From the NCBI GenBank assembly GCA_963719225.1, contig CAVRAY010000001.1:1408001-1472000 (forward strand): DNA of 64,000 nt. The letters run 5' to 3'. Shown in pieces: positions 12,001-30,012 of the stretch. Position 1 is the first letter of the stretch. The number at the start of each line of letters is the position of its first letter. Made by a program: the position numbers and the translations under genes. The stretch comes from Thermoanaerobaculia bacterium. GTDB taxonomy: Bacteria; Acidobacteriota; Thermoanaerobaculia; UBA5066. Below the pieces are notes generated by a model. The model had not been told where the DNA came from. It did no database searches and saw only the letters and a program-made list of their open reading frames with translations.

Positions 12001-12336
12001 GAGAAGTACGCCTATCAGCTCGAGCAACGTCTCATGGCTGCGGAGAGTCCCTTCCGCATCACCCTGCAGCCAGCAGCGGACGCCGCCACCGGTGCGCGGG
12101 CTCTCGCGCGAACACGCGGCTCCTTTGTCGGGCGATGGGTGAGCGGCACGAAGCGGTTGGACTATGGCTTCTACGAGTCTGTGTCGGGAGGAGCGAACTC
12201 TTCGCGGATTCTTTCGGGTGGTGATTTCACTGTGTCCCCGGGTGGCGCTTTTGGGATCCCGGCTGAGTATTCACAGGCATTCCCGGGCTCGACGATCTTC
12301 GGCATTGACCCTCTAAATATCGTTAAGGGACCATGA
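1..12336 (+). CDS. rhs: Giant Rhs/YD-repeat polymorphic toxin, 5'-truncated (>4100 aa): Ig-like/beta-rich N-terminal region, DUF6531-like segment, YD repeats, Rhs core, C-terminal toxin
   Basis: Frame is open from base 1 (the track starts it at GTG 70). Contains many YD/YxYD..GR repeats, SVSLVSGE...RTYRS...GWNSS, the core motifs YHYSPYGE and MGYARNRWYD...QDP...NLYGFV...TDPMG, then a divergent C-terminal tip. Confidence 0.95.
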   Translation, partial: GPAGSGLSATFAAGALSSPVDLGVRLTALSGQGLPEPLPLGWTPLAAAELRLVPGGVGDDALPEGTGTPFTANAVHLTLTLPSGVPSNAELFAARYDVAAGAWLALPIPVRATGAGGADTVTVALAGPGPVAVIAPDVDPATRPPVMPTSLDAPLIGTDLPSVLPALAAAIGLDPPIVSPTGRATARVLARSADGTTPWPSGLAVQAYLDEKLILSGGGELYEAPFSSDLILYHPPLAPADVGATAPGAVGSLTFRISPSPRAAQVLLDTGYENVRLFPFTDQLERGQVLGPAGGSVSSPDGVELFVPESALAQKAVVRARLLSSSELAALPVPAGYSLVAAVRVDLSGFPLARGATLKLNAPAGLPADAVDDPRLVLASFVDQPDDGRGAFARVVARVALLPAAGSVPAKLVGAPEVSGSTLPLSGITGEGVFLFLHANAPIGFVTGRVTAPNGAGYAGSRVTTPGLGTADLSQPGGLYALSAPAGSPTLNALHPTLGVSGTATVPSLPKGQIAQIDIILAPTPPRIVSLQPPAGATNQPVGTTVAILFSAPLDPASVTQTVLTVELANTDGTGTGLLFGGNVALSSDRTTVAFSSARPLPPGRTILASLKGGIRSFDGTPYAGTLPVTWTFTTSTAFLPGGNIHPEKIRLLLPVNGTAQIVGADSALPLVLGGTTPWSVWADVDGALACPSITTYPANTNGGFTATVGCPPTANVTLSSRVFIHVLDPTGTQAATWRLGPFVTPDGTGFVAPPGEETVFTTIDGIQVTSPAAAFDVPTLVKVTKKPVDSLGVAVNPGLEMAAVLDVDFEGTAHETLRLRIPVVTASPVGGVVFAGKPIDLPWGRKLQILDLGRLVDDGKGGKLISTLEADQPEDSAPDASTPASSAMAGSGHQALGGRRAQALPKKLLQSIALEFTARATAGFIMGATLELSAITGHVEPAIVGATFFVLYNALADAMVFQAVAKNWNGRFVLPSTGSAFTIVKRDLATGWILSEKSYSAIAPSPGRFVNLGDLEPAATDPPRLIDASPVAVIRFKAPTVLAGKEENLRLRLDVEAHSTDQDTTSLRAVPGEVLPDLSTVELYNLSQTSRAKAVVQAGDFNVGPLGAKSGEDLLAAVSPSDVDADDLSELSFSFSRPLASVADPATLVTLTDCGELNRSAPGPPACPSPLPVPLNVTQEANRTRLRAGLFGPLARGHLYRVELKSLTSDSTPSLAYPPTDPTVFSFATRSGQSGPIGSTVGSGVLALGDTNSARDLLKFGNLLLVGSASGKLLAMDASDPVKPVLFARLAPEAGDQLRAFASDGHNRLFYNTRLGASWAVKAVRVEDVWQALPSTCPQGLPSEPAWLTALPCFAAVPGGVKSAFALGSTTGLTPSEFLTLTGSLPTGTPSDLQILVDDDTVGPYPLEEFFDKVPGSGTPPSGPPSSPDQFYSISLTINTAGHVFDRGAGICGEPGFDKKQRVTIDDLTTGQSWSVDVPNPSTSGMSLAVAIRARKRDQIQVRYNKTAIGYLAIVGSGVSAFDLNRFYDTLTPATGGTQGNKSECGRRLGTFEGAGISFPTCGRVTPDSLAFTPALAVATGKGFIDVFSVLTHFGAGNLVAASGGPGSLQAIEMKCLVDTLPASTPTTPAPSPSYRAVTLALNTMWIDRHISPGPSPGSFVGPQTPVPPSGVRGDLAFYSLGPAGIDVYDVTGRGSMALIGRFWAKDHTVYRLASDAAGRRLFAGGQDKNGNPIIDVWDISQANGGPSKDGVFPDPAGSADTRLLFTLKAPWDTNHIGLEESTGFLYTWGVNGPGVEGGFVVPTRDPGFIFSGLYRPENESRAAGATPLPSVQVDTQDLVPLGVQTQVSTADEADPEKSKADERTATAAFKVRISLPGTLGEKLVAKVQTLRSLPDARFLSKDDVGPLVAAPGGGGWPERDVFVTLRRLVPVAGTSSDRLQQPFNLYESDEVVLLLADPRAKLAYWKSKQGLKSPAQVADEKTQCRRCGRPSYLPNDTGNTEIPVKELLAAGPWVRAYLAEPPGGDAPTAAALDFFRQQGDNFPAPSGAVQVSGHADEVPSPIQISLAEPALNPAVWSAEAGTSVSLVSGEAILAATDHAVEGRGVGFVFDRTYRSGVLGYGPLGAAGWNSSLFAHLRMLPHTGEMEFHDGGGRVWKFSPPALGGCVDVDHYESDGAFCIPKGLYVKVEVVGNGAAFRLVGRNHDTMLFDSNGRLLELSDRHRRGASDPSSQGNTLSLFYDGAGYLVRAEDELGRSYKFTYDQKPLFSGGAENPQYGLLTRIEDFATPPRVVGFIYDDLRRLLQVQLPDVTSSIAGSSYTQPTVLYHYDFTKALQDTAPLHGPDFPKFKLTGFRLPDAGADRVTLDYVPETGRVTSLAVPPSPPNSGTVAWQFQNPDPSSDAGPLNGISLVAPWQLRADYTFTSGRINTVSETVETLRGTDPSPPAGSDPPAVALTTTYVYLDDGRIDHITWPDGHVTRQDYQGTDRLEKANVSHVMAEAGGAPTGTAQHGTPTSEIRSYVDNIPETTADPEGRAVTSAVSVPSGSASPGYDAAPGQTAVSGNSKYDPFGRMKEFTGAGSNGTHVTMGFGKDAKGRPDRGFASEIARGAVKESLKYDEDGMGPRGNVTTRETSFQTSSKYEYDEWDRPVKETLGLSASGDFDAVPDAIVTRAFDPIGHLKVERRRQMDLDNGEVETVYEYNDREQLVSVTVNNLAQAAPGQTSGLATGKTRYSYNRSGQLSDVTSPHGVTTHYEYDAAGRVKSEQVSSSGIRKRAYDEMGRTVWMTDGDIGVWRGRFDAWGRMYQEDLPTGASIEREYDAAGGIKRETTFSGDPKSASSNKLAETLAHVTSFGAVNEVQEMLTASPASYRVTLKQYDGSGRLAGVTSGPTDAIQRTDLTVQYDDAGRPVVQTDGGNNETHHDYGGTAPWPVRTFVLEAVPGSPSRPKTVESEFRRDAFGRVVKETRSSGGTLVSIVQTGYDQVGNVKSVESGIGSRSEYLYDGAGRLIKETRPTGGSTKYGYDLDGRVKARVTAQGGASVSETDYGYDGAGRLASILRPDGTTESFTYNGDDTVDMWTNRSGIVVTHRYDAANRLIGRFPGSRPAGSKVVVDGGDTYDYDEASRLRAADRIDTPTGAPGVFAANAAARAAFTGYDAAGRPAEERIGARDALKRFYDTWSREVAVGVPAGVGRHGVGSFSGYTRDFDSLDRLVLMTANAGGPKLGARWDWGGTARLYGITTDNALKTAHRMSYLGSGLGAQPGGTVATPWQLGTISVASADPKQPVTDEPTTLWGQFGFGYRTGDGVKRGREVMDRQTGKPSLFSNQGWSFTPDNGLRLQTAEAGRGTRDGSSAPSIFEKFDVTYGLGDEVNLLSREGGANSSTLLATGAEGRIAKRNGIGFEHDLEGRRQKDDRFSYVWSWRGELLSVTVNDCWPAEQGSQPTSGCPANQYGSPYAKHQIRYEYDALGSLLAREHLGAQATPGDDTTRSFIERREYLWDGSHLMAEVGKAQDGTLRWRKSYVPGASGLDDAVQERIEIYSLSGVDVVSDTLYTFLRDEQNSVVALVEEKVGADPASPPTPVRYHYSPYGEAHAETGSELLLTRFDSSLHGVTKPDGTTVSQTTAADAVDGGIRLTLTLPPDPSTLAAALLVEKRNTDGTWGALNAADLALGQRAGAPEELELLPLTGFTKGATYRVGFQSLKDTLGRTATLPNFALDIPTDGTPVLLDRTYPLVYDSYFASGTTASGAFPGGQNLLFQGLWTDPVTGMGYARNRWYDARNAVWLSQDPLEDKDSPNLYGFVGARPHELTDPMGTCAELDDIPCGEYLKEFGDQFLFQNLWETTRRSGRFLLGEGKGAVKAVPNLAKGVAHVAMHPVKTIQALGTAAGEAIADPTGTAKRLGNAVMNADPDKAAEFTGGALALAGLGAAAKTTEGLAALGRLGRAGEVVEAVDAGSSLAKYGDLGYVEGLAARASRFALRRAQAGGATGRVAGRRAEEIFEKYAYQLEQRLMAAESPFRITLQPAADAATGARALARTRGSFVGRWVSGTKRLDYGFYESVSGGANSSRILSGGDFTVSPGGAFGIPAEYSQAFPGSTIFGIDPLNIVKGP
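10873..11350 (+). repeat. 478-bp rhs core segment, direct repeat of 26113-26590
   Basis: Identical by eye from gcagctgacgccgtcgac to aacgccgtct; offset 15240. Confidence 0.95.
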
Positions 12337-12806
12337 TCGAGATAGCTCCAGCGCAGATTCCCGACATTCGAGCTCGTTTGAAGAGTGCGTCAGCTGAACT
12401 AGGGGACGCATGGGCTCAGATGGAGTCGATCGAAGTACAGCCTCGTCGGCAGCAGGCTCCCTTCGTCCAGCTCGCGCACGACGAACTGCCTGGAGAGGAA
12501 ATTGACGCGATCCTCGCGTATGAGGGTATTCCACAATTCAACGGTGCCATCGGAATCCCTTTTCCGTCTCGGCCTGTCCAACTCGGTAAGAAGGAACTAC
12601 TCGTTTTTCCGATTGACGGGCTAAGAGAGCACCTGAGCTTGCACGAACCCGATCTTGTGGCGCGACTCCAGAAGAGTGGGGGCATGTCCGGCTACATCGC
12701 AGCCCAGCAGGGTGAAATCTCAGCCAGGGAGTATCTAATCGGTGGACTGCTGGAGTGCATCAATTACTGCGTCGAGAACCGCCAAGCGCTTGAAATCAAG
12801 TGGTGA
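12333..12806 (+). CDS. Putative immunity protein for the Rhs C-terminal toxin
   Basis: 157 aa, ATGA overlap with the rhs stop, lower GC, no recognised family. Confidence 0.75.
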   Translation: MIEIAPAQIPDIRARLKSASAELGDAWAQMESIEVQPRRQQAPFVQLAHDELPGEEIDAILAYEGIPQFNGAIGIPFPSRPVQLGKKELLVFPIDGLREHLSLHEPDLVARLQKSGGMSGYIAAQQGEISAREYLIGGLLECINYCVENRQALEIKW

Positions 12807-12813
12807 CGATTCC

Positions 12814-12890
12814 CGCGCGTCACGCTGCGTGCGTGAGCGGCCACGCGTGACGAGCGCGCCTGGTCGGGCACGCATCGCGCCGCGCTGAAG
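12814..12890 (+). repeat. ~75-bp imperfect direct repeat, copy 1 (copy 2 at 17526-17600)
   Basis: Shared cgctgcgtgcg...ggccacgcgtgacgagcgcgcctgg...gcacgcatcgcgccgcgctg. Confidence 0.85.
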
Positions 12891-12921
12891 ACGACCCGGA
12901 AGTCGCGGCGAGGGAGATCGT

Positions 12922-14361
12922 ATGAGTTGGTCCGAGGTGCAGCTCGCCTCACTGGCTGAGACCTACTTCCGGAGCGGCGGCGCGAGATGCCCGGGCGACA
13001 ACACGCCGCTGAAAGTGGAAAAGCTGCAATACGTCGGCAGGAAGACCGCGGATCTCTTCCTGCACTGTCGGCGCTGTGGCACGAGCGCGACTTGGGGAAA
13101 TCAGGAGCCCACGAGTGGAGCCGGTGTGTGGCCAGCGGCTGCCCGGAAACTGATTGTGGACAGCTACTGGGAGCACGGGTATGCGAACTGCCCAGTGGAC
13201 GGAGCGAATCTGACGGTCCACGAATCCCGGCAGCTGGGGAGCAAGGGTGGTGCGCACCTCCTCGTGCATTGCGTGCGCTGCGGGCGCCACTTTTCGGACG
13301 ACGGACAGGGCGAAGATCAGGAAGAAAAGGACCCTTTTCTCGCTAAGTACGAGGTCATCAGGTCACTCGGGAAAGGAGGGATGGCGACTGTCGACCTCGT
13401 GCGCGACAGGCGAACCGGTGACGAGCTCGCAGCAAAGACGATCGCGCCCGAGAGGGCACGTGAGGCTGGCTTCATCGAGCGTTTCCGTCGTGAGACGGGA
13501 ATCCTGCGAGGTCTCTCGCACCCGAACGTCGTGAAAATCATCGAGGAATTTACGCAGGGCGATCGTGCCACCTACGTCATGGAGTACCTGTCGGGCGGCG
13601 ACCTGGGGCAAGCCATCTCTGACCCGAATCGCGATGTGCACGCACTGGCGCAGCTCTTCGCGGACGCTGCGGAGGGCGTGACCCATCTTCACGGACGAGG
13701 TTTCATTCACCGCGACCTCAAGCCGAGCAACATCCTGATTGGGAATGAAGGGCGAGCGCGGGTCTCTGACTTCGGGCTGGCCATCCAGGCCGAAAGGAAT
13801 GAAGCGGTTACTCGCACGGGAGAATTTCTCGGCACGAAGATGTATGCCGCTCCCGAACAACTCCGCGGCGCGCGGGGCGTGAATGAGAAGGCGGACATCT
13901 ATTCCCTGGGCCTGATCGCCATTCAGGTCCTCAGCCGGAAGCTGAGTCAGCCAGAACTCCACCTCTGGACGGATGGAACTGATCCGGCGTCGCGTGCGCT
14001 CGCGAACGCCTTGAACCAGGATCCGGCGAAGCGCACTATCACCCCGAGGGAGCTCGCGTTGGCCGTGTGTGAACGGGTGCTGATGGAGATGGCCGTAACG
14101 GCGCAGCCGAGCCAGCAGCTCACAGCTGGCGAGAAGAACACGCTGCTGGAAATGATTCCGGACGACGACAAGGTGGACGAACACCTCGCGGCTCGCGGCC
14201 TCAGGCGCAAAGGGAAAGGACGTCCGCGTGCGGGGGAGCTTTACCTCGGCAGAGGCGGGCCGATGAGCGACGGCAGGGGCATCTATCGGCGCGAAGTCGA
14301 CAACACTCCGGGAAACGGATTCTCCGGCGCCGATCTCTTTGAGCTGCTGGAGCGGGGCTGA
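12922..14361 (+). CDS. Hanks-type Ser/Thr protein kinase with two N-terminal Zn-ribbon-like repeats
   Basis: LGKGGMATV, AAK, HRDLKPSN, DFG, APE and DIYSLG motifs; the N-terminus has CPxD-x~23-HCxxCG twice. Confidence 0.9.
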   Translation: MSWSEVQLASLAETYFRSGGARCPGDNTPLKVEKLQYVGRKTADLFLHCRRCGTSATWGNQEPTSGAGVWPAAARKLIVDSYWEHGYANCPVDGANLTVHESRQLGSKGGAHLLVHCVRCGRHFSDDGQGEDQEEKDPFLAKYEVIRSLGKGGMATVDLVRDRRTGDELAAKTIAPERAREAGFIERFRRETGILRGLSHPNVVKIIEEFTQGDRATYVMEYLSGGDLGQAISDPNRDVHALAQLFADAAEGVTHLHGRGFIHRDLKPSNILIGNEGRARVSDFGLAIQAERNEAVTRTGEFLGTKMYAAPEQLRGARGVNEKADIYSLGLIAIQVLSRKLSQPELHLWTDGTDPASRALANALNQDPAKRTITPRELALAVCERVLMEMAVTAQPSQQLTAGEKNTLLEMIPDDDKVDEHLAARGLRRKGKGRPRAGELYLGRGGPMSDGRGIYRREVDNTPGNGFSGADLFELLERG

Positions 14362-14448
14362 TCGGCTAAAGCAAGCGGCGCCGACGGTACGTCCGGGGCT
14401 CCGGCGTGCGAGGCGGACGAACTAAGCTCAAGGGATCTGTGACGGAGG

Positions 14449-14868
14449 TCAGCGGCTGGCACGTCTGCGGATGGAGAGGAGCACCTTCTCTATCTTCGCG
14501 GGCGTCCGTGTTTCGCACTCCCAGATCACGCGAACGGACCAGCCAGCGCGCCGGAGAGCAGCCGTCTTTCGGCGATCACGTGCGGCGTTTTCGGACCGCT
14601 TCTTCAGCCAGAAATCCGGATTTGTAGCAGGCACGACCTGCCCGTAGCGGCAGGCGTGCAGGTGCCAGAAACACCCGTGGACGAAGATGGCGGTGCCGAA
14701 CTTCGGGAAGACGAGATCAGGGCGGCCCGGGAGACCGGCACGATGAAGGCGGAAACGCATGCCCAGCCTGTGCGCGATGCGGCGGACGACGAGCTCGGGC
14801 GTCGTGTCGCGGCCGCGCACGGCCTGCATGTTTCGTCGGCGCTGCTCTGCAGTAAGGACGTCCGTCAC
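14449..14868 (-). CDS. vsr: Very-short-patch repair endonuclease
   Basis: MTDVLTAEQRRRNMQAVRGRDTTPE, LPGRPDLVF, FVHGCFWH and VIWECE motifs. Confidence 0.95.
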   Translation of the reverse strand: MTDVLTAEQRRRNMQAVRGRDTTPELVVRRIAHRLGMRFRLHRAGLPGRPDLVFPKFGTAIFVHGCFWHLHACRYGQVVPATNPDFWLKKRSENAARDRRKTAALRRAGWSVRVIWECETRTPAKIEKVLLSIRRRASR

Positions 14869-16030
14869 GAGCAGAGCGGACGGATCTTCTCGATGAAGCC
14901 CTCGACGGTCAGCAGATGTCGCCGGGTTTCGACGGGAAATTTCACGTGCAGAGGCTCGGGCACGACGAGCTGGACCTTCGCGTCACGCATCTCCTCGAGC
15001 TGTGCAGACGAGATGCCCTGCTGAATGGTGAGGATGTGCTTCAACGGGATACGGCGGGCCTCACGAACGACCTGTCGCCACCGGTCCTTGCACGTCGTCT
15101 TGACGCCGACGACGACGAGGCGATCATCGGGAAAGCTCTGCTGTCGGTACTGCTCTTCTCCAGGAATGATGATGTCGGGCCGGCCGTCCACGCCCCGTGG
15201 GCGCATCGTGTGTGGGATCCGCGCCTCGGAAAGGAGATAGTCCACGTGATTTTCGAGAGAGCGGCCGGCGCGCGACTTTCGACGATTCATGATGCGGCCG
15301 GCGGTGTCGAGAAAGTCGTCGACGTCGCGAAACGTCCGCGTGACCTCCGTCTGGCAGAGCTGGCGCTCCACGAGCCGAAAGAGCTTGTACTCAGCCTCGA
15401 CGAAATCGACGAGGCGCCGGTCAGGGCCAAGTGTGCGAATCGTTTCGATGCACTCGAGGAGCGCCTTGCGCGCCGCATCCGAGAATGCTCCACCCGTAGG
15501 GAAATTCGCGAGACCCGCAGCGAACGTCGGAAGTGTCGCTCGACACATGCGTCGGGCGACTCTACCTGCGGGACACCGCCACGGAAGACGGCCCACGTGT
15601 CGAGGATTGCGACGCCCAGGGCGCTCTGGACCTCGTCGATGTCGTCGTCGTGCTCGAGAACGAAGGCGCTGAATTCATGGAGCGATTTCGGGACGATGAC
15701 GAGCAGGTCTCCGACACATTCTTCGGCCATGAACGGAAAGCCCTTGCCGAACCGGGTGAGCCGATATTCGTTCTTCGCCTTTCCGTACCACTTAACGCGC
15801 GATTCGGTCGTGACGAGCCCGCCCTGCCACGTGACGCGCACCGTGCTCTCGTCGTTACGTCCCTTTTCGGGTCCGAAGGGGGCGAACAGCTCCCATGCCG
15901 ATATGGGCAGGTAATAGCCGTACTGATGGCCGCCTGTCAGGCCGACGTCATTAGGGGAAATGAACTTGAGGACCGCGTTTCCGTGCTCGAGCGCTTCTGC
16001 GATCGCTTCCTCGCAGGCGGGCGAGGGCAT
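14865..16030 (-). CDS. EcoRII-like type II restriction endonuclease (N-terminal effector domain plus catalytic domain), one frameshift near 15540
   Basis: N part has LKFISPNDVGLTGGHQYGYY and NEYRLTRFG; C part has NRRKSRAGRSLENH, RPDIIIPG and KTTCKDRWRQV. Confidence 0.88.
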
Positions 16031-16034
16031 TGCG

Positions 16035-17162
16035 TCAGGCTCTCTTACGCCCGTACTGGGCGAGGGGTGACTTCAGGAGGCAGCCCTTCTTTTCCAACTG
16101 CCAGCCGAGCGTCCGAAGGACTTCCCGGCCGACGGCCTCGACGACAGGAGGCACGACGGCGTTTCCGAACTGCCGATAGGCCTGCGTGTCCGAGACGACG
16201 ATCGGATACTCGTCGGAAAGCCCATGAGTCGCGCGCACTCGCGCGGCGTCAGGCGGCGTGGCGGCTTGCGCTTCCCCTGCGAGATGAGAATTTCGGAGCC
16301 GTCCTTGTAGTAGCGCGCGCTCAGCGTACGCGTGACGCCTCCGGGATCCGCGATTCCGAAGCCGAAACCGTTTCCCTTTTCCTTGTGGCGTCGCGCGTAT
16401 TCCTGGAGGTATGTCCAGAGGTGCTCGCTCAGCGTGTACTTATCCGGAGGATCTTTTTCCAGGATGTCCTGCAGCTTCGGGCGTGGGGCCTGTGGAGCTG
16501 CAGGGAACTCGAAGGGGGGAGCATCGCCGAAGACCCGGCGATCGAAGCAGACGATGAAGATGCGCTCCCTGTGCTGCGAGATCCAGGAAGCCGCATCGAT
16601 CACGGTGGCGTGGACCACGTAATCCAGATCCTGGAGCGTCTCGCGGATCACATTCCAGGTGCGGCCCGAATCGTGAGAGAGAGGATTTTTGACGTTTTCG
16701 AGGAGGGCGATCGGGGGCCGCTTCGCCTCGATCAGTGTGGCGAGCGTGAAGAAGAGATTCCCCGGTCGGCACACTTGAATCCGTGTGCGCGGCCGAGGCT
16801 CTTCTTCTTCGAGACGCCTGCGATCGAGAACGGCTGACATGGGAAGCCAGCAGCCATGATGTCGTGGTCAGGGATGTCTGGGAATTTCGGATGTCGCGGC
16901 GGCTCTTCTCGAACATGGTGACGTCTTCCGAGTACGGTCCACTCCGAGGAAAACACGCATGTGCCCGAGCCGCCGAGCGCGGTCTGAACCTCGATCCGGC
17001 GAAGAGATCGACGAACTTGAAGGGGAGAGCGCCGCACGGATTTCTCAACGACGGCGCCGGGCCGGAGAAGAGCGTCATCTGACCGCCGTCTGGGCCTTGC
17101 GCAGGACGACACGACGAACTCGCGTTTGGAGACGCCGTCACGGCAGATTCTCGCTGATCCAC
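16035..17162 (-). CDS. dcm: DNA cytosine-5 methyltransferase (Dcm/M.EcoRII-like), split over several frames by indels
   Basis: FVDLFAG, AGFPCQPFSIAGVSKKKSLG, LLENVKN, QHRERIFIV, TLSARYYKDGSEILI, PRRLTPRECARLMGF and SDTQAYRQFGNAV are spread over four track ORFs. Start codon uncertain. Confidence 0.88.
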
Positions 17163-17286
17163 GTGTCAACTCCGGGGTACGCCGGACAGCATGTCCGGCT
17201 ATGGCTGCCTCTGGGAAAGGACGATATCAGGAGATATCATGAATTCCCAGCGCCTCCTTCGAGAGGCTCGGAAAGGAGGAAATGAG

Positions 17287-17454
17287 ATGGCCAAGAACTC
17301 TCCCGTCGGTAGCGGCCGCCGTGTGGCGCGGTAAGGATCGATCGCAGGTGAAGAACCGATCAACGATCGCTGGACAAACGCGACGCGGAGAGCGGGCGCT
17401 TCATCGACAGAAAGCGGACGACAAGCCTTCAAGGGTGTCCGCCGCGAGAAGTGA
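17287..17454 (+). CDS. Small basic hypothetical protein (~57 aa), broken by several single-base deletions
   Basis: Strong RBS (aaggagg). Reconstructs to MAKNSPVGSGRR.GAVKDRSQVKNPINDRWTKRDAESGRFIDQKADDKPFKGVRREK if about five single bases are restored. Confidence 0.55.
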
Positions 17455-17525
17455 CCTGCCTGCGGCCGCAGAGCTGACAGTGGTCCGAACCATGGCCAGC
17501 TCTTCGTGAATCGCTCGGCGATGCT

Positions 17526-17600
17526 CGCGCGTACGCTGCGTGCGACACGGCCACGCGTGACGAGCGCGCCTGGCCGCGCACGCATCGCGCCGCGCTGGAG
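17526..17600 (+). repeat. ~75-bp imperfect direct repeat, copy 2
   Basis: Matches 12814-12890 with a few mismatches and indels. Confidence 0.85.
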
Positions 17601-17763
17601 CTTCTTCTTTAGCCGCTTCTCCGCGGCTCACCACACGCCCGAAGAGGACCGCAATCGCGCCCGCCGGCGCTCCGGCCCGCGGGGTGGAGGCGCCGGCCGC
17701 GGGGCAGCGCGCGTGCCCGCGGGTCCCTCCCGGCCTCCCATCGGGCACGCGCCTGCGAGAACC

Positions 17764-17799
17764 CGCTCGCCGATAAACGCGTTTATCGGCCCCGGCACT
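17764..17799. repeat. 36-bp inverted repeat, left arm, containing the perfect palindrome GCCGATAAACGCGTTTATCGGC
   Basis: Reverse complement matches 18536-18571 with one mismatch. Confidence 0.9.
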
Positions 17800-17878
17800 T
17801 TCATGTCCCGCTGCGCTTCGCTCCGCGGGGCCACCCCGCGGGCCTCCGGGTCGCGGCTCGCTTCGCTGCGCCGCGACC

Positions 17879-17907
17879 TTTAACAGAACGTGGAGGTCGC
17901 TGTTAAA
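17879..17907. other. Degenerate Xer-like inverted site TTTAACAG-N13-CTGTTAAA
   Basis: 8-bp AT-rich inverted arms resembling the XerD arm TTATGTTAAAT. Confidence 0.4.
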
Positions 17908-18449
17908 CGCGCGGGGCGTGCGGTGCGCGCCCGGCGGGCGCGAGCGGTGAAGGGCCTTGCGCGGCGCGCGCCTGAAGGGCGCGAGCACCTGCGCGCGCAA
18001 GCGTGCTCGGTCACGCGCCACGTCTCGCGCGCCGCGCAAGGCCTCGTGGCTGGCGGTGCTCGCTTCGCTCGGGTGGTAAAGCGCTGGCAGTGCACGTGCG
18101 CCTCTTCCGCTTCGGTCGGCTGTGCCTGGCGTGTGCTCGGCCACCTTCGCGGGCACGCTCCCGCCAGCGCCGGGCACGAGAGGATCGCGCGGGACCGCCG
18201 CGCTGCGCGCGGCCGCGCCGAAGGCGCGGCTAAGGAAGAAAGCTCTCGGGCGTGGCGCGAGCGTGCCCGTGCGAGCGGATCGAGGACACGCAGGAACGAG
18301 GCCCGCAGATGCGCGAACACGGAAGGGGAGCACGCGCAGTGCCACGCCTTTAGGCGCTCGCGCGAAGCGCGCACGGAAGATCGAGGTGTGAACCGTGAGC
18401 GAAGCCGAGGCGCGCGGGCGCGCGGTGACGACGAGCCCCGGCCTGGGCG

Positions 18450-18478
18450 GGTTTACATAGCCTTGGGTTATGTGAAAG
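18450..18478. other. dif/xrs-like site GGTTTACATAG-CCTTGGG-TTATGTGAAAG
   Basis: Right arm matches the E. coli dif XerD arm at 9/11; the left arm is an imperfect inverted copy; 7-bp spacer. Confidence 0.5.
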
Positions 18479-18535
18479 GCGAAGCCCGGAGGCGCGCGGG
18501 TGGGCTGCGTGCGCGAAGCGCACGCGCACAGGAGC

Positions 18536-18571
18536 AGTGCCGGGGCCGATAAACGCGTTTATCGGCCAGCG
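18536..18571. repeat. 36-bp inverted repeat, right arm, containing the 24-bp palindrome GGCCGATAAACGCGTTTATCGGCC
   Basis: Partner of 17764-17799. Confidence 0.9.
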
Positions 18572-18849
18572 AAAGGATGCAGCGCGCGTGACGGGAAGGG
18601 GAAATTGGGGCCACGCCTGGAACGCGCGCTGCGGAGCGCCCGGCACGAACGCCCCGCGCGCCGGAGCCCGCCGGGGCCGGGGGCGTAACGGGCCGTGCTC
18701 TTCGGAGGATGGGAGCGCGATCAGCTCACCTGTCGCGACGGCCGCTCCAGCGCGGTCACGGCGCTTGCGCGGGAGCGCGACGACGGAGCACGAGTCGCGC
18801 GGACGTGGTCGCGCGAGAGCCATTGCAAGCGTCCGTGACGCGCGGGAAG

Positions 18850-19537
18850 AGACGATGCGAGCTTCGTCTCGACCGCTTCGATAAACATCGACCGATGTCG
18901 AGGAGCGTCTGTGCCTCTGCGAGCATCTTGTCTCGTGTCCGCTTGCGCCGCTTGCGGCGGCTGCCCTTCAGGTCGATGTCCAGCTCGTGAATGATCTGAT
19001 TTCTGACCTCGAAGATCGGCCGCAGGTCTGCCGGGGACTTTCCGAGGGCCGAGGCCTCGACGCCGAGCGCTGCGGCAGCGCGAAACAACTGCTCAGCCGA
19101 CTGAAGGCTGTTTCCAGTCAGATCTTCCGTGTAATCGACGATAAGCGATCACGTAGAGACGCTGCGGAAAGAAGATGAGCTAGGAACTTCGTACCGCGGC
19201 GCGTGGATTCGTCATCCTCATTCTGGAGTCGGGACGCAACGAACCTCTCCAGACCTTCCTGAACCTTTTTGTCCTTCTTCAGGAGATCGACGAGGGTGTT
19301 GCGGATCAGCTGCTTCGTAAGCGAGTCAAGGCCTGCGCCAGCGAGAACAAGAGCAGCGCGCAGTAGATCCTGCTCGGCGTCGGTAGGAGCCCCCGCGGTC
19401 ACACCGCGGCTTTGCCTGACAACACCGAAGGCATCGTCGAAAGCCTTAACCGTCGTCTTTGCGTGATCCAAGATGAGCCTTGGGCTGGCGGTCTGAGGGT
19501 GGGGTGAGTTGCTCCGTGGTCGGCGCGCAACGGGCAT
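18850..19537 (-). CDS. HEPN-domain protein (putative RNase), frameshift near 19130, 3' end uncertain
   Basis: N part has DLLRAALVLAGAGLDS; C part has the Rx4H motif RNQIIH. Lies directly downstream of the XRE gene. Confidence 0.65.
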
Positions 19538-19542
19538 GAAGC

Positions 19543-19983
19543 TCAGCTCGCCTTGGCGAGGAAGGCGTCAATGGTCCTGAGGAGGGCCTGCTGATCACGC
19601 TTGGGGAGGCGCTCGAGGTCTTGAAGGCGCCTGAGGAGCCGGCGGTTTTTGATTGCGCCATTTCCCTTGAGTTTCTCGAGGCCGAGAAGCTCGTCGGCCG
19701 AGACACGCAGGACCCGGGTCAACTCGACGATCGCCTGGCCGTGGAGCCGCAGCTCCCCGCGCTCGTAGTCCGAGACGACCGGCTGGGCGACACCGAGATG
19801 CTCGGCCAGCTCCATCTGGGTGATGCCGCGCTCGCGGCGAAGCCGTGAGAGGCGCTCCCCGATGGACTCTTTGTTTTTCCCGTCCGGCCCGTCTTGTCTG
19901 CCACGCCCGAGGCCTCCGTCCAGAAGATCGACGGAACGATCGTAGGGCTGGATTCCGGATGGTCCTGGTCGGGCATGTCGCAT
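19543..19983 (-). CDS. XRE/Cro-C1 helix-turn-helix regulator
   Basis: IGERLSRLRRERGITQMELAEHLGVAQPVVSDYERG; divergent from the primase. The true start may be ATG 19976 with an indel in the A-run near 19875. Confidence 0.9.
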   Translation of the reverse strand: MRHARPGPSGIQPYDRSVDLLDGGLGRGRQDGPDGKNKESIGERLSRLRRERGITQMELAEHLGVAQPVVSDYERGELRLHGQAIVELTRVLRVSADELLGLEKLKGNGAIKNRRLLRRLQDLERLPKRDQQALLRTIDAFLAKAS

Positions 19984-19994
19984 CCCTCTTGCAG

Positions 19995-20003
19995 ATTATA
20001 GCA
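19995..20003 (-). promoter_or_regulatory. Extended -10 promoter (TGnTATAAT) for the XRE-HEPN operon
   Basis: Minus strand reads TGCTATAAT just upstream of the XRE RBS and start. Confidence 0.55.
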
Positions 20004-20100
20004 AAAACCTATAAGTTTGGAACACGAAGAGGAGGGCCTGCGAAATGGCCACCCGGATCCCGAAAGCTCTTGACAGCCTCCGACGAGGCAGGTGACGGCG

Positions 20101-23100
20101 ATGCCCCGCATCCCGAACGATCTCCTCGAGCGCATCAAGCACGAGACGCCGCTGCGGCTCCTCGTCGAGCGCTCGGGCGTCGTGCTGAAGGTCTCGGGCG
20201 AAAACGTCATCGGCCTGTGCCCGATGCACGACGACCACGACCCGTCTCTCGTGCTGACGCCATCGCGCGGTCTCTGGCACTGCCTGGGAGCGTGTCAGGC
20301 CGGCGGCACCGTGATCGACTGGGTCATGAAGGCCGACGGCCTCGATTTCCGCGAGGCCGTCGACAAGCTGCTAGCCGAATTCTTTCCTTTAGAAGCCGCC
20401 TCTCTCATCAGGCACGCAGCCGTCACGGAGCAGGCCTGCCCGCTCGATCTCGACGCCGACGACCAGACGCTCCTCAACCAGTACGCGGATTTCTGCCACG
20501 AGCTTTTCAAGACGACAGCCGAGCCGAAGGAGTACGCGGCTAAAAGACGGATCGCGTCCGACGAGCTCGTCTCGCATTTCAAGCTCGGCTACGCGAATCG
20601 CACGCTCGGCCTCCGTCTCCCGAGCGTGCGAGCCAGAGCCGGCCTGGCGCTCCGTATGCGCTTGCAGTCTCTCGGCATCCTCCGCGGCTCGGGCCACGAG
20701 CATCTCGTCGGCTCTCTCGTCATCCCGATTAGGGACAGCGCCGGCAACGTCACGGGCATGTACGGGAGAAAGACGCGCAACGACCTCCGGACCGGGACAC
20801 CTGATCACCTCTATCTCCCTGGCCCGCACCGCGGAGTCTTCAACGTCGAGGCTTTCGCCGAATCGAAGACGATCATCCTCACGGAGTCGCTCATCGACAC
20901 GCTCTCCTTCTGGGAAAGCGGTTTCAAGAACGTCACGTGCGCCTATGGCGTCGAGGGCTTCACCGAGGAGATTCTCGGAGCCTTCTCTTTCCACGAGATC
21001 GAGCGCTGCTACATCGCCTTCGACCGCGACGAAGCCGGCGACCGTGGTGCGACACGCGTCGCCGAGAAGCTCATGTCGGCCGGCGTCGAGTGCTTCCGCG
21101 TCCTCTTCCCGAAAGGGATGGATGCGAACGAAGTCGCCCGGAAGATGCACCCGGCCGAGAAGACGCTCGGACTCTTCATCCGGAGCGCCGAGTGGATCGG
21201 CAAAGGAAAGGGCCCGGAGAGACCGAAGAGAACCGAGAGGCCGGAAGAGGCGGCTAAAGAAGAAATGCGGGCAGCGGCCGGGCGGCCGGCTGCGCGCATC
21301 GAAGAGTCACGTGCTGCCGCCCCTGCTCAACTTCTTTCTTTAGCGGCTCCTGCGCCGCTGCCCGAAGCGCTGGCGCCAGCTCGCGAGCACGACGAGGCGG
21401 CTAAAGAAGAAAGGCCGGCCACGAGTCTGACGGCCACCACCGATCTCGACGAATTCATCCTCGTGGAAGGCGACCGCCGCTATCGCGTCCGCGGGCTCCG
21501 GAAGAATCTCTCCTACGGCTCGCTCAGGCTGAACGTCTTCGTCTCGCGCGACGGGGACCTCTTCGACGAGAAGTCACCGCTGGCCGGCTTCTTCGTCGAC
21601 ACCTTCGATCTCTACGCGGCGCGTGCCCGTGCCGTCTTCGAACGCCAAGCGTCTCTCGAGATGGGCGTCGAGGAGCGCGTCATCAAGCACGACCTGGGCG
21701 CCGTGCTGAGGCGTGCCGAGGAGCTGCAGCAGGAAGCGATCACGAAGGCGCTCGAGCCGAAGGCGCGCCCCGTCCTCATGAGCGCCGGGGACACCGAAGA
21801 GGCGATGAGGCTCCTGCGTGACCCGAACCTCCTCTATCGCATCCTCCACGACTTCTCCCGCTGCGGCGTCGTGGGCGAGGAAACGAACAAGCTCGTCGGC
21901 TATCTGGCAGCCACGTCCCGAAAGCTCGATCGCCCGCTCGCCGTCATCCTCCAGTCCTCGAGCGCGGCGGGCAAGTCGTCGCTGATGGAAGCGATCCTGG
22001 ATTTCATGCCCGAAGAGGAGCGCGAGAAGTACTCGGCGCTGACCGGCATGTCCCTCTTCTACTTCACCGAAGAGAAGAGCCTCAGGCACAAGATTCTGGC
22101 TGTCGTCGAAGAGGAAGGCGCCGAGCGCGCCAGCTACGCGCTCAAGCTTCTCCAGTCGGAAGGCGAGCTGTCGATCGCGTCCACGGGGAAGGATCCGCAC
22201 ACCGGGCGTCTCGTCACGCAGGAGTACCGCGTCGAAGGGCCCGTGATGATTTTCCTGACGACGACGGCCGCGGTCGTCGATGAAGAACTCCTGAATCGCT
22301 GCCTCGTCCTCTCCGTCGACGAGAACCGCGAACAGACGAAGAGGATCCACGAGCTTCAGCGTCAGGCCGAAACGATCGAAGGGCTCCTGGCCGCTAAAGA
22401 TAAGAGCAGGATCGTCCGCCTCCACCGCAACGCGCAGAGGCTCATCAAGCCTCTTCTCGTCGCGAATCCGTACGCAGCCCGCTTGACCTTCCTCGACGAC
22501 AGGACGCGCACGAGGCGCGATCACGTCAAGTACCTGACCCTCATCCGGTCGATCGCGCTCCTGCATCAGCACCAGAGGGAAGTGAAGACGATCGAGCACG
22601 AGGGGAAGGTCGTCGAATACATCGAGGCGACGCTCGAGGACATCGGGACCGCCAACAGGCTCGCGGCCGAAGTCCTCGGCCGCTCTCTCGACGAGCTGCC
22701 ACCGCAGACACGTCGCCTCCTCGAGCTCCTCGAAATAATGGTGACGAAAGAGAGCGAGCGGCTAAAAGTGGGAAGGGCCGACTTCCGCTTCACGCGCCGC
22801 GACGTACGCGCGCGCACGGGCTGGGGAGACACCCAGCTGAAGGTCCACCTGAACCGTCTCGTCGAGCTCGAGTACGTGCTCATCCATCGTGGGGGCCGCG
22901 GGCAGAGCTTCGTCTTCGAGCTTCTGTACGAGGGCCAGGGGAAAGACGGCTCGCGCTTCGTGCCGGGCCTCGTGGATGTCGAGACCCTCGGGCGTGAAGC
23001 CGAGCGGGCGGGGAAGAACGATGAGCAGCCGGGCCTCGGGCGGCCCCTGGTCGGCGGGCGGTCGGACTCCGGTCGGGCTGAAGAGACGCCGGGCCCGCCC

Positions 23101-23247
23101 GCTCCTGCAACTGCTTTTCTTCCTTTAGTCGCCGCGCGTTTCGACGAGGCGCTACTCGGTGGCGACCCCAAGGTGTCGTCGTACCAGGCCGAGGCAGCTA
23201 AAGAAAAAAGCTATCGGCCGCGGCGCTACTTTCTGCGCGGTGCCTGA
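20101..23247 (+). CDS. DnaG-like primase (CHC2 Zn finger plus Toprim) fused to a C-terminal P-loop NTPase
   Basis: CPMHDDHDPSL...WHCLGAC; ILTESLID and IAFDRDEAG (Toprim); ILQSSSAAGKSS (Walker A-like) and VVEEE (Walker B-like); low-complexity linker. Confidence 0.9.
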   Translation: MPRIPNDLLERIKHETPLRLLVERSGVVLKVSGENVIGLCPMHDDHDPSLVLTPSRGLWHCLGACQAGGTVIDWVMKADGLDFREAVDKLLAEFFPLEAASLIRHAAVTEQACPLDLDADDQTLLNQYADFCHELFKTTAEPKEYAAKRRIASDELVSHFKLGYANRTLGLRLPSVRARAGLALRMRLQSLGILRGSGHEHLVGSLVIPIRDSAGNVTGMYGRKTRNDLRTGTPDHLYLPGPHRGVFNVEAFAESKTIILTESLIDTLSFWESGFKNVTCAYGVEGFTEEILGAFSFHEIERCYIAFDRDEAGDRGATRVAEKLMSAGVECFRVLFPKGMDANEVARKMHPAEKTLGLFIRSAEWIGKGKGPERPKRTERPEEAAKEEMRAAAGRPAARIEESRAAAPAQLLSLAAPAPLPEALAPAREHDEAAKEERPATSLTATTDLDEFILVEGDRRYRVRGLRKNLSYGSLRLNVFVSRDGDLFDEKSPLAGFFVDTFDLYAARARAVFERQASLEMGVEERVIKHDLGAVLRRAEELQQEAITKALEPKARPVLMSAGDTEEAMRLLRDPNLLYRILHDFSRCGVVGEETNKLVGYLAATSRKLDRPLAVILQSSSAAGKSSLMEAILDFMPEEEREKYSALTGMSLFYFTEEKSLRHKILAVVEEEGAERASYALKLLQSEGELSIASTGKDPHTGRLVTQEYRVEGPVMIFLTTTAAVVDEELLNRCLVLSVDENREQTKRIHELQRQAETIEGLLAAKDKSRIVRLHRNAQRLIKPLLVANPYAARLTFLDDRTRTRRDHVKYLTLIRSIALLHQHQREVKTIEHEGKVVEYIEATLEDIGTANRLAAEVLGRSLDELPPQTRRLLELLEIMVTKESERLKVGRADFRFTRRDVRARTGWGDTQLKVHLNRLVELEYVLIHRGGRGQSFVFELLYEGQGKDGSRFVPGLVDVETLGREAERAGKNDEQPGLGRPLVGGRSDSGRAEETPGPPAPATAFLPLVAARFDEALLGGDPKVSSYQAEAAKEKSYRPRRYFLRGA

Positions 23248-24284
23248 TGGCCCGGCGTGGCGAGAAGCGCGTGTGGGCCTTCTCTGAGGCCTCGGATCCC
23301 GGCGGCCTCGTCGCGCTGATGCGGCTCTGGATCGAGTCGCTGCGCGTGCGCGGAATCTCCGCGAACACTGTCGTGCACTACGAGTGGGAAATCTCCGGCT
23401 TCATTCTCTGGTGTCACGAACGTGGCCTCGTGAGACCGGGTGAGATCTCGCGGCCGATCTTCGAGCGCTACCAGCGCTTCCTCTATCAGTACCGCACGGG
23501 CCACGGCCGGCCGCTGTCATTCCGAAGCCAGTACAAGCGGCTCGCCGCGCCGAAATACTTCTTCCGGTGGCTCGCGAGACAGGGCTATCTCCCATCCAGC
23601 CCCGCGTCCGATCTCGACATGCCGCGGCTTGGCCGGCGTCTCCCACGCCAGATCCTCACGGCCTCCGAGGCCGAGAAGGTCCTCGCGCAACCGGACCTCA
23701 CCGACCCCGTCGGCATCCGTGATCGCGCGATCCTCGAGACTTTCTACTCGACGGGGATCCGAAGAGGCGAGCTCGTCAGGCTGAAGCTCTACGACATTGG
23801 CTTCGAGAAGGGCACGCTCATGATCCGAGAGGGCAAGGGCCAGAAGGATCGCGTCATCCCGATCGGTGAGCGCGCGCTGAAGTGGCTCGAGAAATATCTG
23901 ACGGACGTGCGGCCTCATCTCGTCGTGCCTCCTGACGAGAGCGTGGTCTTCCTGACGTACATGGGCGTGCCGTTTCATCCCGACGCTCTTGGCCACGAAA
24001 TGAAGAAGTACCTGCAGGCATCGGGCGTCGGAAAAGAAGGCGCGTGTCACATCTTCCGGCACACGATGGCGACGCTGATGCTCGACGGGGGAGCCGACAT
24101 CCGTTACGTCCAGGAGATGCTCGGCCACACGAAGCTCGACACCACGACGATTTACACGCAGGTGTCGATCGACAAGCTCAAGAAGATCCACGACGCCACG
24201 CACCCAGGAGCGCGGCTCACGCCGCGAGCCGTGCCGGACGCCGAGCCTCAGAGCGCGGCCGAGGACGAAGATCCTTTCCTTTAG
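23247..24284 (+). CDS. XerC/XerD-like tyrosine recombinase
   Basis: RDRAILETFYSTGIRRGEL, GKGQKDR, HIFRH and LGH...TTTIY (complete R-K-H-R-H-Y set); TGATG coupling with the primase. Confidence 0.95.
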   Translation: MARRGEKRVWAFSEASDPGGLVALMRLWIESLRVRGISANTVVHYEWEISGFILWCHERGLVRPGEISRPIFERYQRFLYQYRTGHGRPLSFRSQYKRLAAPKYFFRWLARQGYLPSSPASDLDMPRLGRRLPRQILTASEAEKVLAQPDLTDPVGIRDRAILETFYSTGIRRGELVRLKLYDIGFEKGTLMIREGKGQKDRVIPIGERALKWLEKYLTDVRPHLVVPPDESVVFLTYMGVPFHPDALGHEMKKYLQASGVGKEGACHIFRHTMATLMLDGGADIRYVQEMLGHTKLDTTTIYTQVSIDKLKKIHDATHPGARLTPRAVPDAEPQSAAEDEDPFL

Positions 24285-24315
24285 TCCTCGCGCCGCGCGA
24301 AAATAAGGCCGCTAA

Positions 24316-25794
24316 ATGAAGAACAGGGCGCGCATCGTCTCGGGCCTCGCCGCGCTCGCTGCACTCTTCCTGGCGCCGATCGCCGAGGCATCCCTCTCGC
24401 GCTCGAGCACGCCGGCGCGCGGGGCACCCGCAATCACGCTCGCATCGCCCGCGTCCGAGCCTTCCGAGTTTTCTCTCTTCGAAGGCGACGAGCTCACGGC
24501 CGCTACCGCCGAATCAGAAGGCTCGCCGAGCTTCCATCCTTTAGCTGCCGTCTCGCTCCTCGACGAGCGCGAGCAGCGCGAGCTCGCGACGCCCCTCGAG
24601 ACAAGTTATCCGAAAACTCGCTACCGGGTTTTCGACTTCCTCGGGGCGCCTCTCCTCGGAATCGAGCGCGGTGTAAGTCTCGAACTGCACTGGGGATGCG
24701 CGTCTTTTAGCTGCGGATTTGCATCTGGGACCGTGGGCTTCCTGACGGAAGACCCGCTCGACGACATCGACAGCCCGAACGTCTACGGGTTCGTGGCCGG
24801 CAGGCCGCACGAATTTACGGATCCGGAGGGGCTGTTCTCGAGCTTGAACGCAGCCAAGGAAGGAGCGAAGACCCTCGCCCGAAACCTCGCGATCATCGGT
24901 GGAATCGGGATCGTCACGGGCTTCTGTCCTCCTTGTGGAGCGGCGCTGGCGATCGGAGCGACGGGATATCTCGCTTACGGCGTTCAGAGCGACATCAACG
25001 ACCGTCTCAAGCAGGGTCAGAACGGAGCGCAGGCCACCGCCGGCGCCATGGGCAACCTCACGGGTATCGGAGGCATCACCGAAGGCATCACGAACAAGGA
25101 CTTCGTCACCGGCGCCGAGCTCAACCTCACGGACGAGGAACGAGAAAAGCGGGTAGGGCAGGGCGCCGGCAACCTCCTGAGCTGGTTCGCGGGCCCGAAG
25201 GTATTCAAGGTCGGAGCGAAGTTCGGCGCCGGCGCCAGAGTGAAGTTTGACGCGTGGCGAGCCAGCGAAAACACCTGGCCGTCGATCAAGCCGGAGGGCG
25301 AGTGGGAGTTTGAGTCGCCGGAATCCCCCGCGACGACGTCGAATTACATAGGTCCAGAACGCCAATTGGGCCCCGCCCGAACAGCGACTGAGATGCGTAA
25401 CTCCCCAGGCGTGGCAACGGGAGGCGAACGACTGCCGGAAGTCGGTGGCAAGTGGTTGCGAGGCCAGCGGAATAACGCAGGTGTGATACCGAGACAAATC
25501 GCTGACCAGCTGCGTGGCCGCTCATTCAACAGATTCAGCGAGCTTCAAAGTGAGTTCTGGAGCCTGGTTGCGGACGACCCAGTGCTCGCTTCAGGGTTTG
25601 GAAGACGAAATCTCGCTCGAATGCGCGCGGGGCGATCGCCATTCGCTCCCCCCGGAGAAAGCACCGGGCAAGGGTGGGCACAGAAGGTCTATAACCTCCA
25701 TCATCGGACACGGGTAGGGGAAGGAGGGGGCGTCTACGACCTTGATAACCTATTGGTGGGCACGCCTCGTTACCATCAGAGTTTCCATAGGTAA
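24316..25794 (+). CDS. Signal-peptide leader (~141 aa) fused to the Rhs core tail, a pre-toxin region and a colicin/pyocin-type HNH DNase
   Basis: MKNRAR-hydrophobic-AEA, then FLTEDP...NVYGFV...TDPEG; the C-terminus has IPRQIADQLRG, FWSLVADDP and YNLHH...GGGVYDLDNL...TPRYH...H. Confidence 0.88.
   Translation: MKNRARIVSGLAALAALFLAPIAEASLSRSSTPARGAPAITLASPASEPSEFSLFEGDELTAATAESEGSPSFHPLAAVSLLDEREQRELATPLETSYPKTRYRVFDFLGAPLLGIERGVSLELHWGCASFSCGFASGTVGFLTEDPLDDIDSPNVYGFVAGRPHEFTDPEGLFSSLNAAKEGAKTLARNLAIIGGIGIVTGFCPPCGAALAIGATGYLAYGVQSDINDRLKQGQNGAQATAGAMGNLTGIGGITEGITNKDFVTGAELNLTDEEREKRVGQGAGNLLSWFAGPKVFKVGAKFGAGARVKFDAWRASENTWPSIKPEGEWEFESPESPATTSNYIGPERQLGPARTATEMRNSPGVATGGERLPEVGGKWLRGQRNNAGVIPRQIADQLRGRSFNRFSELQSEFWSLVADDPVLASGFGRRNLARMRAGRSPFAPPGESTGQGWAQKVYNLHHRTRVGEGGGVYDLDNLLVGTPRYHQSFHR
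24738..25313 (+). repeat. 576-bp near-identical repeat of 26589-27164 (Rhs tail plus pre-toxin region)
   Basis: Offset 1851; a few mostly synonymous mismatches concentrated at the 3' end; ends at codons WEF. Confidence 0.95.
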
Positions 25795-25803
25795 GAGACG
25801 AAA

Positions 25804-29973: not shown

Positions 29974-30012
29974 GCGCCCTTTATCGGATAATCTCCCCTC
30001 GGAGGCCCCTCC

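Follow-up and report, generated by a model that had tools for sequence, protein, structure and literature searches.

The hairpin-rich region at 17519-18850 of the window (the whole stretch of 64,000 nucleotides that was analyzed) is the conserved non-coding part of a unit that encodes a primase-helicase and a recombinase and carries toxin tips. The reading that we favor, to which we assign a probability of roughly 0.45, is that the region, when folded as a single strand, is where the XerC-like recombinase of the unit closes new copies after their replication or resolves them. The initial annotation had proposed a cis-acting region of a primase- and recombinase-bearing element, acting as a replication origin, a resolution region, or an invertible segment; the linkage to such an element, the Xer-like arms, and the DNA mini-hairpins are borne out, and resolution is the best reading of its function, while the role of primary origin is probably wrong.

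Genes in the window follow the order Rhs, immunity, an 84-bp copy of part of the hairpin region, kinase, Vsr and type II restriction-modification cargo, hairpin region, small cargo ORF, divergent XRE gene, primase fusion, recombinase, and Rhs core fragments with tips and immunity ORFs. The main features outside the hairpin region are as follows.

70-12806, plus strand: full-length Rhs gene (4088 aa) and a probable immunity gene; the target of tip displacement
12807-12890, unstranded: truncated copy of the left end of the hairpin region, directly behind the immunity gene and probably a remnant of an earlier unit
19543-19983, minus strand: XRE-family repressor, RstR-like at a score below the cut-off
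20092-23247, plus strand: CHC2 zinc finger and Toprim primase fused to a predicted MCM-like AAA+ helicase with a C-terminal winged helix
23037-23080, plus strand: iteron array of 11-bp period with core GGTCGG, inside the primase tail; predicted primary replication origin
23247-24284, plus strand: XerC-like tyrosine recombinase of the NCBIfam PRK01287 subfamily, above the cut-off
24316-25794, plus strand: leader, short Rhs core fragment (from about 24738), and toxin tip with a colicin/pyocin DNase domain
25804-26034: probable immunity ORF behind the first tip
26113-27612, plus strand: second Rhs core fragment and tip, the fragment being 564 bp long and 95% identical to 10873-11436
27555-28259: SMI1/KNR4-like ORF behind the second tip

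The C-terminal half of the primase protein was modeled at a pLDDT of 81 from 55 sequences, and all 35 of the structure matches listed were MCM helicases or MCM-containing complexes (best E 2.4e-9); the rmsd values are high, and the prediction of an MCM-like helicase is accordingly made at the level of the fold. All 7999 scored candidates of the primase protein search matched, and close relatives were labelled Acidobacteriota, Holophagales, or Thermoanaerobaculia; the protein alignment excludes L004 and L090, whose stretches are interrupted by stops. The recombinase has R172, H268-x-x-R271, H294, and Y303, to which we presume catalytic roles, and candidates for the host's XerC and XerD were located elsewhere in the genome. 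Direct repeats within positions 1-32000 were confined to the Rhs-core repeats and the 84-bp hairpin copy. The window holds one complete copy of the hairpin region, so excision by that site alone would be impossible here.

Several further features were observed around these genes. Between the two 84-bp hairpin copies (12807-17600) lie genes for a kinase, Vsr, a type II restriction enzyme, and a cytosine methylase, and frameshifts, which may be assembly errors, split the genes of the last two enzymes. The cargo ORF at 18756-19537 (minus strand) is also split by a frameshift and has no family match; it contains the residues RNQIIH, which we take to resemble a HEPN nuclease motif, and relatives hold other cargo of 1.7-3.8 kb in its place. 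The leader ORF (24316-24737) is conserved, has a signal-peptide-like start, and in close relatives runs in frame into the short Rhs core; in several units the leader/core junction falls just before a DP motif, with core homology of less than 100 bp. An IS-like transposase region lies at 32390-33827, and a tested part of 611 bp has identical counterparts at two other sites in the genome. Elsewhere in the genome, at G000 C1:57607-57744, a run of about 69 T gives way to one of about 69 A, which is probably an artefact of assembly.

The unit occurs as tandem arrays in hosts ranging from Acidobacteria-like organisms to E. coli. Its order of toxin gene, immunity gene, spacer, XRE gene, primase, xerC, and tip fragments recurs, often in tandem, with Rhs, haemagglutinin-type, and other long genes in records of Janthinobacterium, Pseudomonas, Enterobacter, E. 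coli, Leptospira, Providencia, and Paraburkholderia. Arrays were seen at L055/L056, L054, L053, L075, L078, and L103. In a genome of the same genus, two full units are followed by the beginning of another, and every one of them opens with a hairpin region behind an immunity gene. The xerC gene together with the non-coding part was found in 56 of 5426 complete E. coli genomes at a median of 4 places, none of 197 such places being on a plasmid. Two circular records of 11.3 and 8.8 kb, with no replicon typed, consist of the unit; the 8.8-kb record matches chromosomal arrays in 44 of the 5426 E. coli genomes and could represent either a circle that was excised or a repeat that was collapsed, and both records may be collapsed tandem repeats. 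No metagenome contig was circular by end overlap at any of the 29 loci tested, nor at any of 19 in another set. A divergent branch (L010, L012-L016, and L062) encodes two tandem Xer-like recombinases, and its member L062 retains a hairpin-region homologue. Short-repeat clusters were also seen between the immunity gene and the XRE gene in units of Pseudomonas (L053:9050-9200) and Enterobacter (L054:10780-10960).

The hairpin region itself has the following layout.

17519-18850, unstranded: hairpin region, a non-coding, degenerate inverted duplication centred near 18165, its limits taken from homology in relatives (17520-18851)
17519-17600, unstranded: first long hairpin of the region, with an 89% copy at 12807-12890
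17660-17907, plus strand: left arm, in the putatively ancestral orientation, with outer stem, palindrome hairpin, minus-strand GNA hairpins, and Xer-arm dyad
18450-18680, minus strand: right arm, an inverted copy of the left arm, 73% alike over 202 nt
17769-17790, unstranded: palindrome hairpin of 22 bp with 8-bp arms and a 6-nt self-complementary centre, within the 36-bp repeat 17764-17799
18544-18567, unstranded: palindrome hairpin of 24 bp, within the 36-bp repeat 18536-18571
17879-17907, unstranded: left AT-rich dyad, with an XerD-arm-like stem and a long spacer; 7 of 9 pairs covary
18450-18478, unstranded: right AT-rich dyad, with an XerD-arm-like stem and a 7-nt self-complementary spacer
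17810-18068, minus strand: GCGNAGC mini-hairpin motifs at 17810, 17815, 17820, 17860, 17865, and 18062, with another at 18202
18212-18637, plus strand: GNA-loop hairpins, with 8-bp stems and GAA loops at 18220 and 18515 and with motifs at 18362, 18399, 18479, 18513, and 18631

The 36-bp inverted repeats reported at 17764-17799 and 18536-18571 were confirmed, with 35 of 36 positions complementary, as were the perfect palindromes inside them, the two AT-rich dyads, and the heptamers GCTTCGC at 17815, 17860, and 18062 and GCGAAGC at 18362, 18399, 18479, and 18513. The mirror symmetry of the region is real and reaches beyond these repeats, over arms at 17660-17850 and 18485-18675 that are 73% alike and of which the 36-bp repeats are the best-matching part, and it continues more weakly inward to the centre near 18165; what homologues do not keep is the near-perfect match of the 36-bp repeats. 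The 22-mer palindrome recurs at two further sites in the genome only, both in paralogues of the region. For the GCGAAGC set, the flip of polarity near the centre holds at 7 of 7, the highest score in the 4.75-Mb genome: a score of 7 is reached at about 6 of 95,000 positions taken at 50-bp steps, and in the ranked list this is the sole locus at 7, the next scoring 5. The middle base of the heptamer varies, making the motif GCGNAGC; paralogues of the region rank near the top of the genome-wide scan with this broader motif, but the flip then meets an exception at 18202 and is weak when 12 homologues are pooled (13 TNC and 8 GNA on the left, 14 and 21 on the right). The CCGAAGG loop of many dyads sits on the strand opposite the GCGAAGC set. 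In DNA folding, the arms gave z values of -3.7 to -5.2 and the flank at 17101-17300 was equally strong (z -3.0/-6.0); the dyads of the window, 540 nt apart, fold mainly as local hairpins.

The description of some 1.2 kb free of any credible gene also stands, since the five longest ORFs of the region had no Pfam match and no codon-position bias, their GC content being flat (0.67-0.81) while that of four nearby real genes dips to 0.43-0.53 at the second position. An error-ridden CDS is ruled out by these two results and by conservation with indels.

Evidence for selection comes from 25 homologous arms that were picked for distinct sequence. In their three named helices 84% of cells are paired, against 34-44% in slid controls (n = 6). 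Changes on both sides affect 18 of 27 pairs, a value above those of all six slid controls and one that none of 500 shuffles reached, although this is not a probability because the arms are related. Four of the 8 pairs in the helix of the 22-bp palindrome covary and 94% of its cells are paired, and RNAalifold recovered the same three helices unaided. Judged by this pattern of change, the hairpins of the region are under selection. Their loops are DNA-type GNA triloops: C(GNA)G triloops occur at 3.2 per kb in 12 homologues versus 0.42 per kb in the genome, the remaining triloops being enriched 1.3-fold, GNRA about twofold, and UUCG not at all. GNA alone among loops forms such mini-hairpins in DNA, and SSB binds them poorly (PMC13037366).

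DNA matches to the region at E<=0.001 were found in 67 of 101 genomes, many of them weak and the strong ones within the family only, and the primase was found in 21 of the 101; within the genus, 5 of 28 genomes have the primase and more have the region. Full copies are mosaics of hairpin modules in which palindrome alleles occur in either arm, and homologues carry differing hairpin alleles on the left and right. Because the right dyad is absent in L001, L059, L079, and L064-type elements, the symmetry is dispensable. The centre is collinear with the window in all nine homologues whose match crosses 18165 (L055 twice, L001, L025, L058, L059, L079, L082, and L083), L017-type copies being unscorable in this respect, with a different and more symmetric centre. 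A 71% paralogue lies beside a tRNA-Ala gene in an island without this primase or recombinase, the same island-type paralogue occurs at 85-94% in four other genomes, and a 2.25-kb mini-element holds only a small ORF, the hairpin region, and a repressor. Among 10 copies that are truncated or interrupted, in one case by an IS-like insertion bearing terminal inverted repeats, the ends are spread between about 17600 and points beyond 18235, and a break point or nick site at a fixed place is accordingly rejected. The identity breaks that separate array units are scattered as well, as are the ends of half-copies, and none of them maps to a dyad.

The island just mentioned is 18 kb long, is borne by a tRNA-Ala(CGC) gene (L017:8985-11240, L018:7042-9341; G000 C1 3644984-3665340), and has its own phage-type integrase, a deaminase, and a SIR2-like gene. 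The mini-element that comes after it reproduces the left end of the island at 99.8% and closes at an att-like site that is secondary, and each of the two contains a hairpin-region paralogue and an XRE gene and no primase.

Of the claim that the dyads are dif-like or Xer-like sites, the Xer-like arms survive and a duplex dif appears unlikely. The dyad arms resemble the XerD-side arm of the host dif candidate, which lies at the GC-skew peak (C1:2037569), 610 kb from the window. Their spacers are 6-11 nt long, self-complementary, and covarying, so the dyads fit hairpins and not a fixed duplex core; a pair of duplex dif sites is rejected in view of the spacer variation and of the separate host dif candidate. 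Two further candidates were rejected. A palindrome arm resembles the host XerC arm (CCGATAA), yet other alleles change the stem freely, and we therefore do not regard it as a XerC site. The target of a protelomerase is a fixed perfect palindrome that the enzyme cuts, whereas palindrome stem and spacer vary among the homologues, and the recombinase falls in PRK01287 with no match to a telomere-resolvase family.

Distant relatives offer a fuller form of the site. At 8 of 33 distant loci (L003, L005, L050, L051, L052, L075, L078, and L102, of which L051 and L075 are near-identical elements and L050 was identified in one scan and did not pass the fold filter of another), two inverted Xer-like sites 55-106 nt apart pair into one bulged stem, with unequal spacers of 7-10 and 6-7 nt. 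The short form seen in the window occurs at three (L054, L090, and L091), and 22 have neither form; many of these are short contigs, but not L053, L076, L077, L101, L103, or L104. The outer stem of L003 shares an ACATAA/CTATGT mismatch with the window family, and nine distant regions, chosen as non-coding, have 17 TNC versus 2 GNA stems, that is, one strand. We infer that the left half of the window's region is an ancestral one-sided cluster and the right half its inverted duplicate, and the dyads of the window look like the collapsed outer stem of the fold-back, duplicated in inverted orientation. Since they have no inner XerC-like arm, homology between the window and the fold-back rests on the outer stem and the flanking hairpin.

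If the region is a folded recombination site, relief of the XRE repressor would allow the primase-helicase to bind the iterons at 23037-23080 and unwind the unit, and the unwound or displaced strands would fold, with GNA mini-hairpins helping to keep the fold against SSB. The XerD-arm-like stems (17879-17907 and 18450-18478) would be recombinase substrates only when folded, which would tie recombination to replication and leave resting arrays stable. Recombination between copies of the site would give monomer circles carrying Rhs core, tip, and immunity gene, and homology in the unit body or in the shared Rhs core could let these back in, with displacement of tips. In distant relatives a single cluster lies on one strand, and the window's lineage, through its inverted duplication, could present the site on either. 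Beyond the anatomy, each of these steps is one that we infer.

This reading is favored by the apparent selection on the hairpins, the DNA-type loops, the fold-back like that of CTXphi attP in distant relatives, the iterons that account for origin function, the arrays, and the two circular records. It is weakened by the 22 of 33 distant loci with neither form of the site, the dispensable right dyad, the lack of a break point at the dyad, the persistence of the region without primase or recombinase in the tRNA-Ala island and the mini-element, the 0 of 197 E. coli places on plasmids, the chance that the circular records are collapsed repeats, and the position of the CCGAAGG dyad loops opposite the GCGAAGC set.

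The main rival, less likely though compatible with a folded recombination site, is a role as paired single-strand priming signals (ssi/sso). Once the unit had been unwound from the iterons, its DnaG domain would prime each strand at that strand's own set of GNA hairpins, on the model of RepB' at ssiA and ssiB of RSF1010. GCGAAGC lies 3' of the centre on each strand, a geometry like that of RSF1010, the zinc-finger DnaG primase gene is 1.2 kb away, and CCGAAGG is the commonest dyad loop. A CCGAAGG mini-hairpin is present in ssiA, and the priming site of G4 has a GCGAAAGC (PMC13037366); ssiA and ssiB are reported to be 40-nt inverted repeats (PMC8567376). Priming would leave unexplained the Xer-like arms with bulged central regions in relatives; moreover, distant relatives are one-sided and copies of the region persist without the primase. 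The region also lies 4.2-5.5 kb from the iterons, unlike RSF1010, whose priming signals adjoin the iterons.

We consider it doubtful that the region is a transfer or packaging origin, at which the recombinase or a helper would nick a hairpin for the export of one strand, as at an oriT or a filamentous-phage packaging signal. Tyrosine-recombinase-like relaxases exist, the hairpin clusters of distant relatives lie on one strand, the region is kept in the primase-less tRNA island and the 2.25-kb mini-element, the repressor is RstR-like, and tips must pass between cells (PMC2935791). Against this, no capsid, relaxase, or conjugation gene was identified in the unit, no match to the primase was found in phage records or to the recombinase in viral contigs, and no break point is conserved.

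The claim that the region is the replication origin is probably wrong as regards primary initiation, because an iteron array of the SaPI/SCC type sits directly behind the helicase domain. The repeats of this array, 11-bp periodic and placed behind the winged helix, lie at 23037-23080 in the window, with two exact 5-mer spacings and one degenerate copy, and are intergenic in some relatives. In 29 of 44 helicase copies, the 200 nt that follow the winged helix contain one 5-mer at three or more spacings of helical period, compared with 12 of 2000 random stretches, and the repeat, with kinship not corrected for, tracks the predicted recognition helix and not the helicase core.

Recognition helix WGDTQLKVH: repeat GGTCGG
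Recognition helix WTDFQVRxH: repeat TCGAG, in close relatives 95-99% identical in the core and also in the distant L090
Recognition helix GDTQLRxH: repeat TCGCG
Recognition helix WSDNQLKVH: repeat AAGTT

SaPI and SCC origins also lie directly behind the helicase (PMC7581432), and from the sequence pattern the iterons at 23037-23080 are probably the primary replication origin of the unit. That the hairpin region is instead a primary bidirectional origin, with the heptamers as inverted iterons around its centre, is very improbable: its polarity switch is the strongest in the genome and replication genes adjoin it, but the iterons behind the winged helix, their change with the predicted helix, their SaPI/SCC-like position, the richness of the region in GC, and the varying middle base of the heptamers argue against it. 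A secondary priming role for the region is possible.

Slighter still are the chances of a structured non-coding RNA, or two convergent ones, in place of a DNA element. The stems covary and GNRA tetraloops are about twofold over background, but GNA triloops are 7.6-fold enriched and UUCG is not; Rfam covariance models gave 0 matches at E<=1 across positions 12000-31000 of the window and nothing except a tRNA in three related loci; and the promoter/terminator scan found nothing above chance, nor any sigma-70-like promoter between 17100 and 20200, though for this host the promoter test is weak. Hardly credible, finally, is the invertible segment that the initial annotation had suggested, flipped by the recombinase between the two arms, since against the inverted arms beside a tyrosine recombinase, the arm alleles shuffled between left and right, and the contigs in two metagenomes that join 17783 to 18575 on opposite strands stand the collinear centre in 9 of 9 homologues crossing it, the lack of anything inside to switch, the many elements without a second dyad, and the origin of those contigs, which at 80% likeness come from other organisms; relatives whose outer-arm alleles are swapped would be expected to give a joint of this kind. 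The contigs of the four sequencing runs (shares 0.05-0.07), at 80%, represent relatives and are uninformative on inversion, circles, and copy number; no RNA data set was among the runs listed.

A literature search that covered the smaller part of subscription papers, judged by the entries listed, found no description of the unit, and one may exist; the available parts of PMC11606950, PMC7764402, and PMC4927057 contain none. Partial likenesses to known systems can nonetheless be drawn. CTXphi attP has 12-bp and 5-7-bp sites 90 bp apart, of which the duplex forms are inactive and the folded strand works (PMC4246890). The unit is like CTXphi attP and IMEX in its RstR-like repressor and its tandem arrays, and may be so in having two inverted dif-like sites with unsuitable duplex spacers that would pair on a single strand (in full form at 8 of the 33 distant loci). 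It differs in encoding its own PRK01287 recombinase with intact motifs, whereas those elements use host XerCD, in its location away from dif (the candidate being 610 kb from the window), in the site that stays intact inside the integrated unit, in having no phage genes, and in the reduction of the window's site to a duplicated outer stem.

With SaPI and SCCmec (PMC7581432) the unit shares a primase and an MCM-like helicase, iterons directly behind, a recombinase next, and a divergent repressor; specifically, it has a predicted MCM-fold initiator with a primase and iterons at 23037-23080 directly downstream. Unlike them, it has primase and helicase in one protein, had no flanking att direct repeats that we could find around it, sits in polymorphic-toxin loci, and has a separate 1.3-kb hairpin region. 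An IncQ oriV is defined by iterons and an AT-rich stretch that adjoin an ssi pair, and by RepA, RepB', and RepC, whereas the hairpin region has a GC content of 0.70-0.76. Its inverted hairpins on opposite strands, as putative signals, and its CCGAAGG and GCGAAGC mini-hairpins recall the oriV of the IncQ plasmid RSF1010 (PMC13037366 and PMC8567376), from which it differs in the DnaG-type primase (a DnaG/MCM fusion, not RepB'-type), arms of about 220-250 nt, Xer-like arms, and iterons more than 4 kb away. Overall, the unit resembles a replication module of the SaPI/SCC type to which a folded site like that of CTXphi has been joined, and it belongs to neither family.

For Rhs tip displacement, Jackson et al. 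(2009) predicted stable episomal circles, with the vehicle unnamed in the part of the paper available to us (PMC2935791). The gene order of the window fits that circle, with its core fragment, tip, and intervening genes and a single crossover that pushes the old tip downstream, and the unit, which differs in encoding replication and recombination functions, may be the predicted episome.

The significance of the hairpin region rests mostly on the unit to which it belongs. Tip exchange and the growth of orphan arrays are a long-standing question, for which the unit is a candidate vehicle with two separable cis sites. More tentatively than for the site itself, we suggest that a dedicated self-replicating element may build polymorphic-toxin arrays (Rhs, CdiA-type, and others) across many phyla, combining a modular origin, with iterons set by one helix, and a XerC-like recombinase that would act only on a replication-exposed folded strand and release tip-immunity circles, in other words the predicted Rhs episome, with the window representing a two-sided version of the site. 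The correspondence between helix and iteron provides a natural series of origin specificities, and the presence of the unit in 56 of 5426 complete E. coli genomes makes it directly testable there. If true, Xer chemistry would be put to an unusual use here, with a self-encoded Xer-like enzyme that works away from dif and on a folded strand like that of CTXphi.
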